From IMG/VR virus record IMGVR_UViG_3300027932_000003, positions 1 to 34,531 of that record: DNA of 34,531 nucleotides; one strand, written 5' to 3'. The stretch is from a virus. This document shows positions 1 through 34,531 of the stretch, piece by piece; position 1 is the stretch's first letter; the number at the start of each line of letters is the position of its first letter. Position numbers and translations under genes: made by a program. The notes beneath the pieces are model-generated. The model had not been told where the DNA came from and did not search any database. It saw nothing but the letters and a program-made list of their open reading frames with translations.

Positions 1-50
1 TGTAGTTTTTTTCATTTTCTGCGAAAATTTCACAACTAATGCAAAAAATT

Positions 51-410
51 GAAAATTCCAATTTCTTTCGTTTTTTTCGTTTTTTTCGCAAATTTCCCAA
101 CTTTCGCAATAAATTGGAAATTCCAATTAATTCTACACCTCCAAATAATAATTGGAGCGGTGCAAAAAATTCAAACTTCCAAAATTCCAATTAATCTGTC
201 ATTTTGCGTAAATTGTGCAAAAAATGAGAAAAATTGTAAATTCCTAATTTCCTAAATTTGAAATAATCTATCATTTTCTGCAAAAAAGTTAAAAAATTGG
301 AAATTCCTAAATTCCAAATAATTCTACATTTCCAAATAATTTTTCAACTATGATAAAAAATACTAATTTTCTAAATTCCTAAATTACAATTAATCTGTCA
401 TTTAGTGAAA
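51..410. repeat. Imperfect short tandem direct repeats inside the ITR (unit approx aaattcc(a/t)aatt, plus recurring aattaatctgtcatt)
   Basis: At least 8 copies of the aaattcc-aatt motif seen by eye between about 51 and 395; aattaatctgtcattt occurs at about 190 and 388; mirrored in the right ITR. Confidence 0.5.
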
Positions 411-1289
411 TTTGTAATATAAAATTTGCAAATTCAAACTTTGGAAATTTGTAATAAATGTTAATTTGTGGATATTAATAACTACTAACTATAATATTAT
501 AATTTATAATTTGGAGGGAACCAAACCCACAATTTAAAGTTTTTAGTTACTAAACATATTCATAATTTATTTAATTTCTTAATTCTAGCAAACCAAAACC
601 TCAATTTAAAGTTAGAAAGATACTAAACATATTGTTAATTTGTTATATTTATTCAAATCGTTATGTGTTGTTAGTTTTTTGCGTTTAGTGTTGGAGAAAT
701 TGGAAGTTTAGAAAGAAAAGTTTATATACCAGAAGAAAGCATTTAGTATTGTTAGTGGGCATTATCTTTCTTCTTATTATTATTTTTTTATATATATTAT
801 TATTAACATTTAAATTAGATAATTATATAATTATGAAGTTATATAATTATATAATTAGCTAACTACTAATTAGTAGTTTATAATATAATAATTATAGTTT
901 TGTAGTTCAAGTGTAAAATATAGTTTCTTTTTTTCTTTCAATTCAATAGAAGATTCTGTATACAGTTTGGATTTATATCAGTATTTTATGGTAAAAATTG
1001 TAAGGAGATTTAATAATTTAGAGAATATGGAAACTATCTAGTTATTCAATATAATAATTATATAGTTATGTAGTTAGTAGTTTATAATTAATAAATTATA
1101 GTCAAACCTAAAATAGGTTTTTTTAGGATTTTTCACCGTTAGGAAACAATTTATGTTTGGTGTTATGAGAGAAATTGGAGAGACAGAATTTACACGTTCT
1201 CTATAGAGAGAGGTGGCGATAAGAGTTAAGGAGATAGAGAATGTTTTATATTCGTCATATAATATATGATGATTTGTAGATGATAAAAA

Positions 1290-1478
1290 ATGACAAGAGT
1301 ACATAAATTAACTGCTGAGCAGAAAAAAATTTTAGAAAGAATGCATAATAGAATAGATTATATTATCAAAGCTTACAAGGAGTATTTGAATGCGTTAGCT
1401 GAATTTGATAGAACTGGTGTATTAAAAATTCATGGGAAAGTCATTTATGAAAGAAAATATAATGATCATCAAAAATAA
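1290..1478 (+). CDS. ITR-encoded hypothetical protein (62 aa), left copy
   Basis: ATG-initiated ORF with balanced helical-looking composition; upstream ttttatattcGTCATAt (1241..1260) about 40 nt before the ATG matches the genome-wide promoter pattern; identical copy in right ITR. Confidence 0.5.
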   Translation: MTRVHKLTAEQKKILERMHNRIDYIIKAYKEYLNALAEFDRTGVLKIHGKVIYERKYNDHQK

Positions 1479-1516
1479 CATAATTATAAGTCGAAAAATG
1501 AAGACATGAAAAGGTA

Positions 1517-1536
1517 GAGAAAGATTTAAATATGAG
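1517..1536 (+). promoter_or_regulatory. BRE/TATA promoter (gagaaagaTTTAAATAtgag) inside the ITR, driving 1567..1764
   Basis: Purine-rich stretch plus TTTAAATA box about 40 nt upstream of ATG 1567; same module recurs at about 1937..1954, 3241..3260 and 3968..3986. The mirrored copy (32996..33015) sits about 39 nt upstream of ATG 32966 on the minus strand. Confidence 0.5.
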
Positions 1537-1566
1537 TTTTTACATATATGATATTGTGAATAAAAG

Positions 1567-3194: not shown

Positions 3195-3293
3195 ATAAAT
3201 TTTCACTAAAAATATGGCGTAAGCTACAAAGATAAAAGTTTAGAGAAAACTTTAAATATAAGTTTAGACATATGTTATATTGAGGTAAGAAGA

Positions 3294-3461
3294 ATGAAAG
3301 AAGTAAAAGTTGGAAATTCGAGATATTATATAAGTTCAAGAGATGATGAGATAAGTGTAATACATGAGTTAGTTCAAAAAGGTTACTCCATAAGTCAAAT
3401 AGCTAGTTTGTTGAATATTTCAGAAAGAAAAATTAAAAAATACTTAGAAGATTGTTGGTAA
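3294..3461 (+). CDS. small helix-turn-helix DNA-binding protein (55 aa)
   Basis: Hand-translated: MKEVKVGNSRYYISSRDDEISVIHELVQKGYSISQIASLLNISERKIKKYLEDCW; GYSISQIASLLNISERKIKKYL is a typical HTH; TATA module at 3241..3260 and gaggt 8 nt upstream of the ATG; missed by the ORF track. Confidence 0.45.
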   Translation: MKEVKVGNSRYYISSRDDEISVIHELVQKGYSISQIASLLNISERKIKKYLEDCW

Positions 3462-3912: not shown

Positions 3913-4014
3913 TTATTTCTAAACTGGAGGAATTAAAAAAGCGTAGGATAGAAACGTAAAACTGTAGAGAAAACTTTATATATAAGTTTTTGCATATTAG
4001 ATATTAGTGATAAC

Positions 4015-4251
4015 ATGAGTCAAAAAGTTAGGTTAGGCAGAAAAGAAAAAGCAGTTTTAGATTTTTTAAAAGAACATGCAGAAGGCGTTTGGAAGACCGA
4101 TTTAATTAATCATTTTAGCTGGGCTAGTCGTTATGATAATGTTATGAACAAAAGGTTACAACAAATGCAGAAAAAAGGTCTAATAATCATAAAAAGTGAG
4201 ATAAATCCGGAAAGCGGAAGAAGTAAGCAAAGAGTTTATTTAAAACAATAA
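4015..4251 (+). CDS. winged-helix DNA-binding protein (78 aa), paralog of 13704..13928
   Basis: Hand alignment with the 74-aa product of 13704..13928 shows shared R-GxxE, W, NKR, KKGL, NPxxGR and VYL positions; TATA module at 3968..3986. Confidence 0.6.
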   Translation: MSQKVRLGRKEKAVLDFLKEHAEGVWKTDLINHFSWASRYDNVMNKRLQQMQKKGLIIIKSEINPESGRSKQRVYLKQ

Positions 4252-7265: not shown

Positions 7266-7538
7266 TTAAATTAACTTAAAGAATATAGATCTTATTAATT
7301 TAGATACTTTCATATTATATTTATTTGCTAATTCTTCAAGTTTTTGATAATATAATTCATCAATTGTGAAAAAAACACGCTCATCATAAATTTCACTGAT
7401 TTCAATTTCTTTAAATTCTTTTTGAGAATTTAGAATTTTATCTATTTCTTGTTTTATTGTCTCTCTTTTCTCATAAAAAAGATTTTTATACTTTGATGGT
7501 ATACGTAATTCGATATACTTATTTCTTTGCTTTTTCAT
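7266..7538 (-). CDS. hypothetical protein, possible ribbon-helix-helix fold (90 aa)
   Basis: C-terminal half RVFFTIDELYYQKLEELANKYNMKVSKLIRSIF fits a strand-helix-turn-helix (RHH) pattern; divergent from Rep across a shared 70-bp promoter region. Confidence 0.4.
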   Translation of the reverse strand: MKKQRNKYIELRIPSKYKNLFYEKRETIKQEIDKILNSQKEFKEIEISEIYDERVFFTIDELYYQKLEELANKYNMKVSKLIRSIFFKLI

Positions 7539-7581
7539 AATTTTAGATATTTTCAGGCATTATATAAACATGACATATACA

Positions 7582-7593
7582 TTTAAATGTCAG
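7582..7593 (+). promoter_or_regulatory. Rep promoter: TTTAAATGTCAG (TATA followed directly by GTC)
   Basis: TATA box abutting GTC about 20 nt upstream of the Rep start codon. Confidence 0.5.
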
Positions 7594-8243: not shown

Positions 8244-8341
8244 TTCAATTTTATTATATGCAAATTACTTAGTAATAAAGTTTATGCAAAAAATCGAAAT
8301 ATATAAATATGTCATAATGTATGTTTATAAAATGAGGAAAA

Positions 8342-9766: not shown

Positions 9767-10002
9767 GTTTTAATTTTCATAATTTGACAATTAAATAATT
9801 TTTTGTTACTTTACGTATAGTATAATATAGAATATGCGGAATTAGAAATTATAACAAAAATTACAACTCAGCATATATATTATATAATTTATATAGTTTT
9901 TTCTTTAAATGATGACTCAATTTCATCAACTTATATACATTATATTACATATACGACGTGAAAATTTATATTGTAGAAATTAAAATTTATAATTGACCAA
10001 AA

Positions 10003-11733: not shown

Positions 11734-11796
11734 CTTCAAGAGCTGATTAATCGAAAAATTTATGTATGTCATAATATATATAATTGTTGTGAGAGT

Positions 11797-12484: not shown

Positions 12485-12712
12485 TCAAGTTTTGCCTAAT
12501 CTCATTTTTATTTCTTCTATTTCTTTTTTAAGTTCATTTTGAGAAATCTTTAATTCCTCAATCTGAATTTTCAGATTTTGTAATTCTGAATTTACTATCT
12601 CTTTAACAGCATCTTTCAGAGCTTGTTTTATCTTAAGATAAAGTTGAACAATTGCGAATAATGTAGTTACAAATGTAGAAATTATAGTTAGAATTAAAGT
12701 TATTTCACTCAT
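12485..12712 (-). CDS. membrane-anchored coiled-coil protein (75 aa)
   Basis: N-terminal hydrophobic helix (ITLILTIISTFVTTLFAIVQLYL) then heptad-like ELQNLKIQIEELKISQNELKKEIEEIKMRL; overlaps the upstream gene by 8 nt. Confidence 0.5.
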   Translation of the reverse strand: MSEITLILTIISTFVTTLFAIVQLYLKIKQALKDAVKEIVNSELQNLKIQIEELKISQNELKKEIEEIKMRLGKT

Positions 12713-13088
12713 CTTTTATTCCCTCTAATTGATCTTCTAAATTATCTAAATTTAAATTTTCATCTTCTTTAAATTTTTGGTAAACAGAATCTACTTGTTT
12801 CGCGTAAGGCTGAGGATAAACTACGCGAAAATCTGCGATATCAATTCTACCAGTTTTAGGATCTTTAGCTATTAAAAATTGGAAATAGAAAGTAAATCCG
12901 GGGATATATAAATCTACAATTATGGGCAATTCTGAATTTTTTAAAACAATAATTGAATGTGGTAAATATTTTGATAATCCATAAATTTGACCTTGTAATT
13001 CTAATTCTCTAATTTTATCTATCGCGATTCTAACAGGGCCGAAAATATTCGCGAATTCATCTTTAACTTGCATAATTATATATTTCAT
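12705..13088 (-). CDS. hypothetical protein (127 aa)
   Basis: ATG ORF, first gene of a two-gene leftward unit. Confidence 0.55.
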   Translation of the reverse strand: MKYIIMQVKDEFANIFGPVRIAIDKIRELELQGQIYGLSKYLPHSIIVLKNSELPIIVDLYIPGFTFYFQFLIAKDPKTGRIDIADFRVVYPQPYAKQVDSVYQKFKEDENLNLDNLEDQLEGIKDE

Positions 13089-13175
13089 AAAACAAGAATA
13101 AATAAACTCAAAGCGAATTTGCTATATACATTATATTATGTATATTAGTTTGTTGTTTAATACGTAAAGCATGAG

Positions 13176-13198
13176 CGAAAGATTTATATATTTCGAAA
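13176..13198 (+). promoter_or_regulatory. Inverted-repeat-flanked TATA promoter (CGAAAgATTTATATAtTTCGaaa) for the zinc-finger gene 13223..13576
   Basis: CGAAA / TTTCG inverted repeat brackets the TATA box; identical 23-mer at 13656..13678. Confidence 0.5.
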
Positions 13199-13222
13199 AC
13201 GAATATTATCTTGGTGAAAAGA

Positions 13223-13576
13223 ATGAGAAGTCAAAAAACACAAAACAAAAGCCAAAACAAGTTACTTTTTTGTAAATTATGTTCTTTCGTAGCTACAAGT
13301 TATGAAGAATTAGATCATCATATAAAAATGAGTCATGAAGAATCAGATGATATTTCTGAAGAATTTCAAGTAATTTTTCTAAAGAAAAAAGACTATGAAG
13401 AGTATATGCGTAAAGAATATTTAAGAATTTGTAAAGGAGGAGGATGTATTATTAGACCACAAATTGATATTGAGAATGACAAAGATGAAATAAAACATTT
13501 ATACAAAGAATATTGTTCAACTTGTGAACTTAAGAAATATCTTCTAGCCGAATTAAAAGAAAACGGAAAAATGTGA
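13223..13576 (+). CDS. C2H2 zinc-finger protein (117 aa)
   Basis: ORF track starts at TTG 13211; first ATG is 13223, 37 nt from the TATA. CKLCSFVATSYEELDHHIKMSH = C-x2-C-x12-H-x4-H; additional C-x2-C (CSTC) near the C-terminus. Confidence 0.55.
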   Translation: MRSQKTQNKSQNKLLFCKLCSFVATSYEELDHHIKMSHEESDDISEEFQVIFLKKKDYEEYMRKEYLRICKGGGCIIRPQIDIENDKDEIKHLYKEYCSTCELKKYLLAELKENGKM

Positions 13577-13607
13577 ATTTATTAAGTCTTTATTTTTTTA
13601 TGCCCTA

Positions 13608-13629
13608 TTTTTTTCAAATTTGTATTAAT
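13608..13629 (+). repeat. T-tract + palindromic element, copy 4 (tttttttCAAATTTGtattaat)
   Basis: CAAATTTG palindrome after a T7 run, 3' of 13223..13576. Confidence 0.35.
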
Positions 13630-13655
13630 ATTTCTAATTTTTAACAAACAGAAAA

Positions 13656-13678
13656 CGAAAGATTTATATATTTCGAAA
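13656..13678 (+). promoter_or_regulatory. Inverted-repeat-flanked TATA promoter, second copy, for the winged-helix gene 13704..13928
   Basis: Same 23-mer as 13176..13198; 38 nt from ATG 13704. Confidence 0.5.
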
Positions 13679-13703
13679 GCATATATTATAATGATGAAAG
13701 AGA

Positions 13704-13928
13704 ATGAGGATAGGTAAAGAAGAAGAAAAAATTTTAGAATATCTTCAAAAAAATGGAGATTCAGAGTGGTTAGATAAATTGAAAAGTACTTTTTCTCATA
13801 CTGTTGGATATAAAATAATTGTAAATAAAAGAATAAAGAATCTAGAGAAAAAAGGTCTAGTAAAAATTGTTTGGGAAAAGAATCCACAGACTGGAAGAAA
13901 TAAAAAGAAAGTGTATTTAGTAACTTAA
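13704..13928 (+). CDS. winged-helix DNA-binding protein (74 aa), paralog of 4015..4251
   Basis: See 4015..4251; conserved NKR, KKGL, NPxTGR and VYL positions. Confidence 0.6.
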   Translation: MRIGKEEEKILEYLQKNGDSEWLDKLKSTFSHTVGYKIIVNKRIKNLEKKGLVKIVWEKNPQTGRNKKKVYLVT

Positions 13929-13954
13929 AATGTAAAGAGATATAGGTGAAAAAA

Positions 13955-14170
13955 ATGAGTGTAGAAAAAGTTGAGCAGAAAATAATTGAAATAGCACATG
14001 AATTTGCTCAAAAATATGGAAAAGAAATCTTGGAATTAAGTGAAGATGAACTAATCTCATATCTAACATCATTTTTTAATTATGAAGAATGGTTGATTTT
14101 TAAACATAATGAAATAGAAATGTTAAGATTATTTTTGAAAACAGTAAAAGAAGATTTATCTAAATCTTAA
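13955..14170 (+). CDS. hypothetical protein (71 aa)
   Basis: ORF track starts at GTG 13946; ATG 13955 is preceded by aggtga; likely co-transcribed with 13704..13928. Confidence 0.45.
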   Translation: MSVEKVEQKIIEIAHEFAQKYGKEILELSEDELISYLTSFFNYEEWLIFKHNEIEMLRLFLKTVKEDLSKS

Positions 14171-15739: not shown

Positions 15740-15873
15740 AATTATTATATTTGTAAAAGTCAAAATAAAAACTTAATTCTAATATACAATATAATGTATA
15801 TCAGTTTTACTCTTTGATCTCATCATATTCAATTCATAAAATATATATTTGTCATAATTTGAGTTACGAATGT

Positions 15874-16332
15874 ATGCAATTACAATTTAGAATAGAAGAA
15901 GCAAAAGATAAAGAATTAATAAAATTTGTAAGAATGTTGATAGATTATTATCATTCTCAAGGAATGCCTTTGGGAGGCGGTGCTGGAAAAAATAGCAGAT
16001 ATTTTATGTATATTGCTAACGACAGTGAGCAAGATTTTATTGTAGCAGTAGCATGGCTCCATGACAATACACCATTTAGATATATAGCTCAAGAATACAA
16101 AATTCCAGATAATAGAAGTTATTTTATTAGAAGAGTTACAAAAACAGTTCCTGGAGATTATGACATTAATTTTCTAATTGATTTAGCTAAGAAATTGAAA
16201 AATGATGGATTTGAAGTACTTTGGACTTTAGGATTTCCAGATCATTCCAACGCTTTATACAAGAAAGCAGGATTTCAAGAAGTTGGGAAAACAAATAGAA
16301 CTGGACATCCAATTTTCATTAAAAAATTATAA
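15874..16332 (+). CDS. hypothetical protein, possible GNAT-like acetyltransferase fold (152 aa)
   Basis: ORF track start 15814 is TTG; ATG 15874 lies about 25 nt after atatatatttGTCATAat. C-terminal NALYKKAGFQEVG resembles GNAT motif B; motif A is not clear. Confidence 0.45.
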   Translation: MQLQFRIEEAKDKELIKFVRMLIDYYHSQGMPLGGGAGKNSRYFMYIANDSEQDFIVAVAWLHDNTPFRYIAQEYKIPDNRSYFIRRVTKTVPGDYDINFLIDLAKKLKNDGFEVLWTLGFPDHSNALYKKAGFQEVGKTNRTGHPIFIKKL

Positions 16333-16608
16333 CTTATGTTTTTTAATCTTATTTGCTATATATACTGATTCTATAATTGAAAGAAGTGTTTCAAGTTGAA
16401 CATCATTATCGATAAGTACTCCAAAAAGATAACCAAAGAAAATAATTAAAGAATCCATACTTATTTTTTCATCTTTGTAGCTTTCTAAAAGATCATAAAA
16501 AGCATATTCTAGATAACTTACTTGTTTTTCTATAATTTTAAGTGAGTTTTCATCTGGATGAAAAGTTTCTTTAAAAACTTCTATTATTTTCTGTAAACCG
16601 GGATCCAT
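16327..16608 (-). CDS. hypothetical protein (93 aa)
   Basis: ATG ORF, convergent with 15874..16332. Confidence 0.5.
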   Translation of the reverse strand: MDPGLQKIIEVFKETFHPDENSLKIIEKQVSYLEYAFYDLLESYKDEKISMDSLIIFFGYLFGVLIDNDVQLETLLSIIESVYIANKIKKHKL

Positions 16609-16680
16609 ATATCATCAATATAAAAATTTTTATATGACAAATTTAAACATATATATGTCATAATTTTTAAGTTTAATTTG

Positions 16681-17064
16681 ATGAATTTTAGACAATCTGG
16701 AAAATATTATGAATATAAGACACTTAATTATCTTGAAAAACATGGCTATAAAGCTATAAGAATTCCAGTTTCTGGAACTGGAAAACAGCCAATTCCAGAT
16801 ATTATAGCAATTAAGGATAATACAATTTTTCCAATTGAAGTTAAATCAACTTCACAAAATTATGTTGTAATTGATAATTTTCAAATTGATAAATTGTTTA
16901 AGTTCTGTGAGATATTCAATTTTTGTAATTGTAAACCGTTAATACTAGTTCATTATAAAAAATATAAAAATGTCATAATATATAATTTGAGTCAAGATGT
17001 CAGAACAAAAGAAAAAATCAAATTTGCCTTCAGAGCTAACAGCAAAACTGTATTTAGCACTTGA
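16681..17064 (+). CDS. Holliday junction resolvase, Hjc-type (127 aa)
   Basis: ORF track start 16678 is TTG; ATG at 16681. RIPVSGTGKQPIPDIIAIKDNTIFPIEVKS shows the SG ... PD-IIA ... EVK nuclease core of archaeal Hjc; promoter atatatatGTCATAattt. Confidence 0.75.
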   Translation: MNFRQSGKYYEYKTLNYLEKHGYKAIRIPVSGTGKQPIPDIIAIKDNTIFPIEVKSTSQNYVVIDNFQIDKLFKFCEIFNFCNCKPLILVHYKKYKNVIIYNLSQDVRTKEKIKFAFRANSKTVFST

Positions 17065-21644: not shown

Positions 21645-21725
21645 CAATACTTAGATCAAGTCATATACATAATATTATGTATAAGTTATGTGTACTTATT
21701 TTTGTCAACTCATTAATTTTTTCAT

Positions 21726-31236: not shown

Positions 31237-31322
31237 ACGATCTATCACCTGTAAAATATCATATGCTATATGACAAATTTAAAGCATTCGAAAAGTCTCG
31301 ATTTAGAAAAATATAAAAAAAA

Positions 31323-31920: not shown

Positions 31921-32009
31921 TTAACTCATCACCTGTAAATTAACATAACTTTTATGACAAATATAAAAATATCTTAAGCTTTCGATTTATAAAAAAGAAA
32001 AAAATAATA

Positions 32010-32474: not shown

Positions 32475-32651
32475 TTTCACTTCTCACCAAATCAATTCAC
32501 GTATTATGACAAATTTAAAAATGTCTTTACTTTTCGATTTGCAAACTTTCTAAAATATTAGTAATTTTATTTAAAGCCTGAGAAAAATTAAGCATGGAGA
32601 AAGAAAACAAAAAACAAAAAAATAAAAAATAAAGAATACGAAAGAAAAAAA

Positions 32652-32966: not shown

Positions 32967-32992
32967 CTTTTTCACCATTATCTATTATCTCT

Positions 32993-34531
32993 AAACTCAT
33001 ATTTAAATCTTTCTCTACCTTTTCATGTCTTCATTTTTCGACTTATAATTATGTTATTTTTGATGATCATTATATTTTCTTTCATAAATGACTTTCCCAT
33101 GAATTTTTAATACACCAGTTCTATCAAATTCAGCTAACGCATTCAAATACTCCTTGTAAGCTTTGATAATATAATCTATTCTATTATGCATTCTTTCTAA
33201 AATTTTTTTCTGCTCAGCAGTTAATTTATGTACTCTTGTCATTTTTTATCATCTACAAATCATCATATATTATATGACGAATATAAAACATTCTCTATCT
33301 CCTTAACTCTTATCGCCACCTCTCTCTATAGAGAACGTGTAAATTCTGTCTCTCCAATTTCTCTCATAACACCAAACATAAATTGTTTCCTAACGGTGAA
33401 AAATCCTAAAAAAACCTATTTTAGGTTTGACTATAATTTATTAATTATAAACTACTAACTACATAACTATATAATTATTATATTGAATAACTAGATAGTT
33501 TCCATATTCTCTAAATTATTAAATCTCCTTACAATTTTTACCATAAAATACTGATATAAATCCAAACTGTATACAGAATCTTCTATTGAATTGAAAGAAA
33601 AAAAGAAACTATATTTTACACTTGAACTACAAAACTATAATTATTATATTATAAACTACTAATTAGTAGTTAGCTAATTATATAATTATATAACTTCATA
33701 ATTATATAATTATCTAATTTAAATGTTAATAATAATATATATAAAAAAATAATAATAAGAAGAAAGATAATGCCCACTAACAATACTAAATGCTTTCTTC
33801 TGGTATATAAACTTTTCTTTCTAAACTTCCAATTTCTCCAACACTAAACGCAAAAAACTAACAACACATAACGATTTGAATAAATATAACAAATTAACAA
33901 TATGTTTAGTATCTTTCTAACTTTAAATTGAGGTTTTGGTTTGCTAGAATTAAGAAATTAAATAAATTATGAATATGTTTAGTAACTAAAAACTTTAAAT
34001 TGTGGGTTTGGTTCCCTCCAAATTATAAATTATAATATTATAGTTAGTAGTTATTAATATCCACAAATTAACATTTATTACAAATTTCCAAAGTTTGAAT
34101 TTGCAAATTTTATATTACAAATTTCACTAAATGACAGATTAATTGTAATTTAGGAATTTAGAAAATTAGTATTTTTTATCATAGTTGAAAAATTATTTGG
34201 AAATGTAGAATTATTTGGAATTTAGGAATTTCCAATTTTTTAACTTTTTTGCAGAAAATGATAGATTATTTCAAATTTAGGAAATTAGGAATTTACAATT
34301 TTTCTCATTTTTTGCACAATTTACGCAAAATGACAGATTAATTGGAATTTTGGAAGTTTGAATTTTTTGCACCGCTCCAATTATTATTTGGAGGTGTAGA
34401 ATTAATTGGAATTTCCAATTTATTGCGAAAGTTGGGAAATTTGCGAAAAAAACGAAAAAAACGAAAGAAATTGGAATTTTCAATTTTTTGCATTAGTTGT
34501 GAAATTTTCGCAGAAAATGAAAAAAACTACA
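32993..34531. repeat. Right inverted terminal repeat (ITR)
   Basis: Mirror copy of 1..1539; the window ends with the reverse complement of its first bases. Confidence 0.85.
33054..33242 (-). CDS. ITR-encoded hypothetical protein (62 aa), right copy
   Basis: Identical translation to 1290..1478; mirrored promoter. Confidence 0.5.
   Translation of the reverse strand: MTRVHKLTAEQKKILERMHNRIDYIIKAYKEYLNALAEFDRTGVLKIHGKVIYERKYNDHQK

Follow-up and report, generated by a model that had tools for sequence, protein, structure and literature searches.

Two identical 23-bp modules in a Yellowstone rudivirus genome are probably the cores of paralogous early-type promoters

A viral DNA of 34,531 nucleotides (nt; IMG/VR record IMGVR_UViG_3300027932_000003, positions 1 to 34,531; hereafter the window) carries two identical 23-bp modules, one before a zinc-finger gene and one before a gene for a winged helix-turn-helix (wHTH) protein. 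We found that these modules are probably the cores of two paralogous archaeal promoters, designated P1 and P2, of the known early/anti-defence type, and that the inverted repeat within them is probably not an operator. The original prediction had taken the arms of this repeat for an operator that overlaps both promoters, and the wHTH product for its possible regulator. Our evidence comes from the sequences of the window and its relatives.

Results

The 23-bp sequence CGAAAGATTTATATATTTCGAAA was found in two exact copies in the whole window, at 13176-13198 and 13656-13678, both on the plus strand and 480 bp apart, in agreement with the original prediction. No further matches with up to three mismatches were found in the window, and 0 were expected from 100 dinucleotide-preserving shuffles. 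Inverted-repeat arms of 5 nt each, CGAAA and TTTCG, are separated by a 10-nt spacer and bracket the TATA box TTTATATA, as had been claimed and as is read directly in the sequence. The similarity between the copies exceeds 23 bp. It spans 44 nt at 86% identity (direct-repeat family D20), and the 47 nt preceding the ATG are identical between P1 and P2 at 38 of 47 positions, followed by a common ATGAG. The same two modules were present in a second IMG/VR contig from a different sample (L010/L025), which excludes an assembly artefact. The predicted coordinates of the downstream genes, 13223..13576 and 13704..13928, were correct. The predicted distance of 37-38 nt to the ATG holds approximately when measured from the TATA centre (36.5 nt in P1 and 37.5 nt in P2), but the modules themselves start 47 and 48 nt and end 24 and 25 nt upstream of the ATG.

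Perfect terminal inverted repeats of 1556 bp, which contain families of direct repeats, lie at both ends of the window (1-1556 and 32976-34531) and show it to be a complete linear genome. It belongs to a SIRV-like, Usarudivirus-like rudivirus of the Yellowstone type with 25% G+C, and is about 87% identical to SIRV5/6/8/9. No near-identical record was found in the phage collection searched. Rudiviral transcription relies on host TBP, TFB and RNA polymerase at promoters built from a TFB-recognition element (BRE) and a TATA box (PMC5569661). Since the window is a rudivirus genome, a BRE/TATA promoter fits the modules. The P1 core (13176-13198, plus strand) consists of the BRE-like CGAAAGA (13176-13182), the TATA box (13183-13190) and TTTCGAAA (13191-13198), and the P2 core (13656-13678, plus strand) is built likewise (13656-13662, 13663-13670 and 13671-13678). 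In both modules TTTATATA fits the Sulfolobus TATA consensus TTTAWATA. The purine-rich CGAAAGA abuts it and is the counterpart of (G)AGAAAGA/GAGAAAAC in early-type promoters. Early-type promoters have AGAAAGA/GAGAAAGA at the position of the left arm, and CGAAA is also the BRE of two promoters of another class, the GTC-type promoters at 11751 and 8294, which argues that the left arm of the inverted repeat is a BRE variant. The view of the modules as promoters is borne out by the purine-rich BRE and the TATA box, which in this archaeal virus stand at the correct distance from a gene.

Shine-Dalgarno-like motifs, GGTGA in P1 (13213-13217, plus strand) and GATGA in P2, were read between the TATA box and the ATG. 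In Sulfolobus, the distance from the TATA centre to the start site is about 26 nt, and transcription from P1 would start at about 13211-13214. An RNA hairpin formed by the repeat is not expected, since the repeat lies upstream of this predicted start site.

To place P1 and P2 among the promoters of the genome, the 70 nt upstream of about 53 window genes were listed. In most of these promoters the TATA box is followed directly by GTC(A), the known rudiviral TATA+GTC signature (Kessler et al. 2004 as cited in PMC5569661 and PMC1635249). P1 and P2 share with this class the dependence on host BRE/TATA recognition, and in two cases the CGAAA BRE. Unlike it, neither has GTC directly after the TATA box; TTTCGAAA is found there instead. 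A second class, GAGAAA(A/G)(C/A)TTTAAATAT(R)AGTTT (family D1), lies near the genome ends. Its 65-nt early-type members, (G/A)CGTAAG...GAGAAAACTTTAAATATRAGTTT, were located at 1491-1555, 1911-1975, 3217-3281 and 3941-4005, and on the minus strand at 32977-33041. They head small genes that include an Aca8 homologue (3294-3461, product 56% identical to SIRV5 Aca8) and a conserved wHTH paralogue (4015-4251). A virus-specific regulatory sequence common to the early/anti-defence genes of rudiviruses has been reported, centred on a strong promoter made of a purine-rich BRE and TTTAWATA (Bhoobalan-Chitty et al. 2024, PMC11065993), and the D1 family agrees with this published concept of an anti-defence gene (ADG) regulatory sequence. 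As a separate observation, the genome holds another promoter duplication, a 57-nt GTC-type family (D8/D13) with three minus-strand copies at 31253-31309, 31937-31993 and 32489-32545, which share a conserved upstream segment containing TCGA.

P1 and P2 resembled the early-type promoters in local alignments, for which the null distribution had a 95th percentile of 26 and a maximum of 36. Apart from P2, the best partner of P1 was the early-type promoter of the 1995 gene (score 46), followed by weaker matches to the 4015, 3294, 1567 and 32652 promoters (scores 28-32). P2 aligned with the early-type promoters of the 1995 gene (score 40) and the 3294 gene (score 39), both above the null maximum. The BRE-TATA segment of the 1567 promoter, GAGAAAGATTTAAATAT, differs from that of the module, GCGAAAGATTTATATAT, at 2 of 17 positions. 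P1 also has an upstream box, ACGTAAAG (13162-13169, plus strand), which stands 21 nt before the TATA box and is conserved in most P1 alleles. Early-type (class B) promoters carry a (A/C)(C/G)GTAAAA box at the same position, and the promoters of the window 4015 gene and of SIRV3 gp06 have ACGTAAAA there. Around this box, 20 of 29 aligned positions were identical between P1 and the SIRV3 gp06 promoter. The modules share with the published Rudiviridae early/ADG sequences (PMC11065993) the purine-rich BRE, the TTTAWATA and the repetition before several small genes in one genome.

The gene behind P1 is itself listed among the ADG families. SIRV5 gp29, SIRV6 gp28, SIRV7 gp27 and SIRV8 gp35 were assigned to ADG.04 in the "low-probability" sheet of Supplementary Data 1 (PMC11065993). 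That sheet holds genes whose TATA box and BRE are closely early-like but whose open reading frame (ORF) lies among core genes or whose start site is near the start codon. SIRV5 gp29 (ORF29) was confirmed as an orthologue of the zinc-finger gene. The high-confidence ADG.04 members are SIRV3 gp06 and SMV3 gp47 (PMC11065993), and both were also recovered by tblastn with the zinc-finger protein. The wHTH family corresponds to ADG.02/03, "MarR, long protein" (PMC11065993). That report makes no mention of P2, of the inverted repeat or of the 71-aa gene that follows the wHTH gene, and the Yellowstone SIRV papers (PMC5454432, PMC9319562) contain no promoter analysis. These results suggest that P1 and P2 belong to the early/anti-defence type of promoter.

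We then compared 18 unique P1 alleles and 17 P2 alleles, taken from nine sequenced SIRV records (seven with the zinc-finger locus), IMG/VR and JGI metagenomes. The distance from the module start to the ATG was exactly 47 nt in all 18 P1 alleles. The TATA box was kept as TTT(A/T)TA(T/A)A in nearly all P1 and most P2 alleles, the exceptions being TTTTTAAA in the P1 of L043/L044, TTTTTACA in the P2 of SIRV5 and TTTTCATA in the P2 of SIRV9. CGAAA was present in 17 of 18 P1 alleles. While BRE and TATA were kept, the 8 nt after the TATA box varied, with TTTCGAAA in allele v1 and TTTAGATT-TCGAAA in allele v2; SIRV9 has CAAAA/TTTCA and SIRV4 retains a remnant. TTTCG stood at the position found in the window, with the 10-nt spacing, in 6 of 18 P1 alleles. 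The other 12 read TTT(A)GATT-TCGAA or similar, so that TTTCG lies 6 bp further on, at a spacing of 16 nt. In P2, TTTCG was found in 14 of 17 alleles and both arms were intact in 12. The deviating P2 alleles (CAAAA, AGAAA, TTTCA) arose by independent top-strand G-to-A changes at CpG, which are neither symmetric nor compensatory. AGAAA replaced CGAAA in L045, in the P2 of L039, in L052 and in L056. These results do not support the inverted repeat as a conserved functional unit, and its right arm appears to be one allele of a variable segment.

The identity of the two copies in the window was also examined in this allele set. P1 and P2 were no more alike within a genome than between genomes (mean identity 33.15/47 and 33.11/47, respectively; permutation p = 0.50), and across the population their alleles are about 70% identical. 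Concerted evolution or gene conversion of P1 and P2 was rejected on this basis. For the same reason, the 23/23 identity in the window would be a lineage-specific combination of alleles and not a maintained feature.

The allele comparison bears directly on the alternative that CGAAA-N10-TTTCG is an operator overlapping the TATA box, through which a dimeric regulator switches both units jointly. Its candidate regulators are the wHTH protein of the locus (by Aca-style autoregulation), Aca8 (3294-3461), the paralogue at 4015-4251 and a host Sta1-like factor. The repeat is perfect in both window copies, both arms are kept in the majority of P2 alleles as given above, and there are precedents for such a site. 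A footprint of the host protein Sta1 covers an imperfect inverted repeat within SIRV1 core promoters (Kessler et al. 2006, PMC1635249). Repression of early promoters by the wHTH protein Aca8 has been proposed (PMC11065993), and SMV2 consensus repeats overlap the BRE. Most archaeal viral regulators are autoregulating repressors (PMC5569661). However, the spacing switch among P1 alleles moves the half-site centres from 15 to 21 bp apart, a change that a rigid dimer could hardly accommodate. The changes in the arms are not symmetric, and the left arm is already accounted for by the BRE. The motif also occurs nowhere else in the genome. A wider regulon was rejected, as TCGAAA (20 found, 21.8 expected) and TTTCGAAA (2 found, 1.9 expected) were not enriched genome-wide. 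We therefore consider the operator unlikely, and the original claim for the arms does not survive the comparison of alleles.

The distribution of the wHTH gene also speaks against the operator and against the wHTH product as its regulator. Sixteen full-length orthologues with 77-86% identity and two shorter fragments were found. The gene stands behind P2 only in the lineage of the window and in L031; elsewhere P2 directly heads a gene of the 71-aa family, and most genomes with P1 and P2 lack this wHTH at the locus. As seen by comparison with SIRV8, the wHTH gene has been inserted between the P2 module and the 71-aa gene. A GTC-type promoter drives it in L051-L055, and the zinc-finger gene follows it in L052-L055. 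In L056/57 its promoter is TAGAAAAATTTTTAAATCTCTAAAGCG, a variant (TAGAAAAATTTTTAAATCTCT) without the inverted repeat. Since the orthologues have such differing promoter contexts (L051-L058), the wHTH gene and the inverted repeat appear not to be linked across genomes, and autoregulation of the wHTH gene through the arms is unlikely. This part of the original prediction is thus not upheld.

In favour of a regulator, the AlphaFold2 model of the wHTH protein is a confident winged helix (pLDDT 90), and the nearest folds by Foldseek are Stf76, AbfR2, MarR and PadR (TM about 0.7, with a weak E of about 0.03). It matched the Sta1 family weakly (E = 0.002, 18 bits against a cut-off of 80). Bacterial Aca1 and Aca2 autoregulate anti-CRISPR promoters, and Aca8 has been proposed as a regulator of this type in SIRV2. 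Like such systems, the locus has a small wHTH gene in a unit with small accessory genes and an inverted repeat overlapping the core promoter; unlike them, the repeat and the wHTH gene are unlinked across genomes and the repeat is not conserved. The likeness to the Sta1 sites of SIRV1 (PMC1635249) is that Sta1, a wHTH dimer, binds an imperfect inverted repeat inside a rudiviral core promoter. The differences are that the consensus ATNT-N8-(A/T)NAT is not in register in the module and that Sta1 is a host-encoded activator. The Sta1 (ATNT-N8-WNAT) and SvtR (ATnnTTCAAnAnnnnnAAAATG) consensuses were rejected as module sites, with no in-register fit by eye. Regulation through the module by Aca8, the 4015 paralogue or host Sta1 is possible.

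An AT-rich palindrome of about 20 bp, TATACATTATATTATGTATA, was observed at 13125-13144, 9934-9953, 15781-15800, 21664-21683 and 9874-9893. The intergenic regions that hold it include the one before the coat-protein gene and those separating divergent gene pairs, and one copy stands 31 nt ahead of module 1 (about 38 nt from the TATA box). Eight matches with up to three mismatches were found against 0.08 expected, and this palindrome is a better operator candidate than the CGAAA/TTTCG module.

Several observations weigh against P1 and P2 as early-type promoters with a repeat that is not an operator. The top partners of P2 in the alignments were GTC-type promoters with a CGAAA BRE, those of the 11797 gene (score 42) and the 8342 gene (score 40), and P2 lacks the upstream box. 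The segment after the TATA box differs from that of class B promoters; its 8-9 nt are TTTCGAAA in place of RAGTTTNN. In addition, the modules are found among core genes, at 13.2-13.7 kb in a genome of 34.5 kb, unlike early/ADG sequences, which are near the termini; such a location is why the orthologues were placed in the low-probability sheet. A factor other than the proposed Aca8 repressor could act at P1 and P2, and we infer their promoter activity and timing from sequence features. As for the repeat, both arms contain CpG despite the 25% G+C of the genome. TTTCG occurs at a 10- or 16-nt spacing in most P1 alleles, including the distant L039, L041, L043 and L044, which points to possible constraint on a downstream (T)TCGAA element. 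Of 53 upstream regions, 9 had TATA-flanking inverted repeats of 5 nt with at least two G/C per arm, whereas 2.2 were expected. The majority of these nine are TGACA..TGTCA, that is, the promoter signature in both orientations. An inverted repeat by itself is weak evidence, and its two copies count as one event.

The downstream element enters a further alternative, in which the conserved regulatory feature is CGAA(T/A), 9 nt past the TATA box of zinc-finger-gene promoters. In this alternative the element may be a site for the zinc-finger protein itself, and the right arm in the window an extra, allele-specific copy. In P1 the element is CGAAT (13200-13204, plus strand). Fifteen of the 18 P1 alleles have CGAA at module positions 25-28, and it is also found in the zinc-finger promoters of L052/L054, where the gene order differs. 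In the P1 of the window, three directly oriented copies of CGAA stand at module positions 1, 19 and 25. The promoter of the bicaudavirus gene SMV3 gp47 (L049, 333-400) contains the element with identical spacing to the TATA box and the ATG. This promoter is identical to P1 at 34 of 47 positions, compared with a best of 27/47 and a median of 21/47 for the other window promoters. The SMV3 gp47 protein has only about 46% identity to the zinc-finger protein, over 52 aa. This likeness suggests transfer of promoter and gene together between virus families, or selection on the promoter. However, P2 lacks the element, which leaves the shared module unexplained, and SIRV3 gp06, also of ADG.04, has an ordinary class B promoter without it. 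Its conservation could also stem from common descent, or from a basal role of the region immediately before the start site. We regard this alternative as very unlikely to be the explanation of the modules, but CGAA at positions 25-28 appears to be the best-conserved non-core feature of zinc-finger-gene promoters and the most interesting lead.

A wider version of this idea is that P1-type promoters form a small second regulon within the rudiviral early-promoter family, apart from the proposed Aca8 circuit. The element could then be the operator of the zinc-finger protein, and the duplicated CGAAA of the window would make the inverted repeat and extend control to P2. We give this proposal a rather small chance of being correct.

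The two arms could also be opposed BREs on one quasi-symmetric TATA box, which would make each module a compact bidirectional promoter. On the bottom strand the module reads CGAAA-TATATAAAT. The leftward transcript from P1 would lead into the divergent gene 12705-13073, and the one from P2 would run antisense to the zinc-finger gene. The BRE and TATA of the plus-strand GTC-type promoter at 8294-8307 match the bottom-strand CGAAATATATAAAT exactly. The bottom strand of the common P1 allele is CGAAA-TC-TAAATATA, with the same BRE-2nt-TATA spacing as the top strand. Other symmetric promoters exist in the genome, TGACA-TATA-TGTCA at 7571-7592 and a back-to-back pair between 16608 and 16678. On the other hand, the bottom-strand TATATAAA fits TTTAWATA less well than the top-strand TTTATATA, and the arms are lost in several P2 alleles. 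The divergent conserved gene (12705-13073, minus strand, phrog_7457) carries a separate TATA-like TTTATTTATT, about 22-31 nt ahead of its start codon. The gene is kept in SIRV4 and SIRV11 despite their deletion of the right arm, and in SIRV10, which has lost the module entirely. These observations argue that this gene is independent of P1. No minus-strand gene lies downstream of the reversed P2, and the minus-strand ORFs overlapping P2 and the wHTH gene (13582-13887 and 13917-14072) had no family support and were treated as spurious. A bidirectional role is thus highly improbable.

The symmetric promoters elsewhere in the genome were noted in their own right. In both compact elements, at 16634-16661 and 7571-7592, TGACA and TGTCA flank the TATA box. 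The former is the back-to-back pair between the divergent genes 16327-16608 (minus strand) and 16678-17064 (plus strand), and the latter lies upstream of 7266-7538 (minus strand). Both are possibly bidirectional.

The position of the modules coincides with rearrangements among relatives. In SIRV4/11 homology to the window ends in P1 just past the TATA box, and everything through 14170 is lost, so that a BRE-TATA remnant stays. In SIRV10 the end of homology and the start of a deletion both fall immediately ahead of P1. For SIRV5/7/9 and SIRV8, divergence from the window begins directly behind P2. In L058 (1-330) the upstream region of P1 and a CAAAA-type P1 module are fused directly to the wHTH and 71-aa genes. 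No zinc-finger gene lies between P1 and the wHTH gene there, within the 102 nt available upstream, and L058 looks like a P1 x P2 recombinant. L030/L036 are without P2 and the 71-aa gene, and in V60 a GTC-type promoter heads the 71-aa gene in place of P2. Simple P1 x P2 recombination was rejected as the origin of the SIRV4/10/11 deletions on their endpoints. The SIRV4/11 deletion runs from within the P1 TATA box to the 3' end of the downstream minus-strand gene, and only microhomology of the ATAAAT type was seen. The SIRV10 deletion starts before P1. Some of the clustering of breakpoints is what conserved promoters beside fast-evolving genes would yield. Nevertheless, the direct repeats P1 and P2 clearly act as recombination substrates at least sometimes.

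The genes of the locus are consistent with two separate units. The zinc-finger gene (13223-13576, plus strand) encodes 117 aa, with an N-terminal C2H2 motif and four invariant C-terminal cysteines; its C2H2-type Pfam matches were all below cut-offs. In an alignment of orthologues the protein was a mosaic, with alternative N-termini (MRSQKTQNK... and MTNKKVQ.K...) that co-vary with P1 alleles v1 and v2. This covariation suggests recombination spanning the promoter and the 5' end of the gene. Oligo-T terminates archaeal transcription, and two T7 tracts (13593-13599 and 13608-13614, plus strand) lie on the 3' side of the gene, before P2. These tracts are likely terminators, and would part the zinc-finger unit from that of P2. 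The wHTH gene (13704-13928, plus strand) encodes a minimal winged helix of 74 aa with an HTH_24 match, which is distantly paralogous (37.5%) to the conserved wHTH at 4015-4251. Nothing useful came from searching the PDB with the sequences of the wHTH and zinc-finger proteins. The 71-aa gene (13955-14170, plus strand, phrog_21593) is the usual first gene behind P2 in relatives. In the window it begins 26 nt after the wHTH gene without a separate promoter, and the two are probably transcribed together.

Discussion

The present comparison suggests how the two modules may work. Host TBP and TFB would bind CGAAAGA/TTTATATA of P1 and P2 and recruit host RNA polymerase, and transcription would start about 10 nt before each ATG. 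P1 would give a monocistronic zinc-finger (ADG.04) mRNA ending at the T-tracts, and P2 an mRNA for the wHTH and 71-aa proteins. P1 and P2 would belong to the rudiviral lineage of strong early/anti-defence-type promoters and not to the majority TATA+GTC class. Because they share a core promoter, the two units are likely expressed with similar strength and timing. The predicted co-regulation is retained to this extent, but a common operator with the wHTH protein as its regulator is unsupported. The two similar promoters, 480 bp apart, may in addition recombine, so that gain, loss and replacement of cassettes would begin at or within the modules.

The regulatory significance of the modules is modest, as each appears to be an ordinary BRE/TATA promoter and the operator idea fails comparison. 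If the zinc-finger protein does have an operator at its own promoter, archaeal viruses would gain their first described sequence-specific autoregulator of the C2H2 type. The natural alleles, which differ in the repeat (present, displaced or absent), in the wHTH gene (present or absent) and in deletion of the zinc-finger gene, would also provide a ready mutational series for readers of the TATA-to-start region beyond TBP and TFB. Shared promoter sequences are now used to predict early/anti-defence genes in archaeal viruses, and this locus would be a pair of such promoters in the central genome. These two similar promoters may thereby mark the edges of cassette gain, loss and replacement in natural rudivirus populations.

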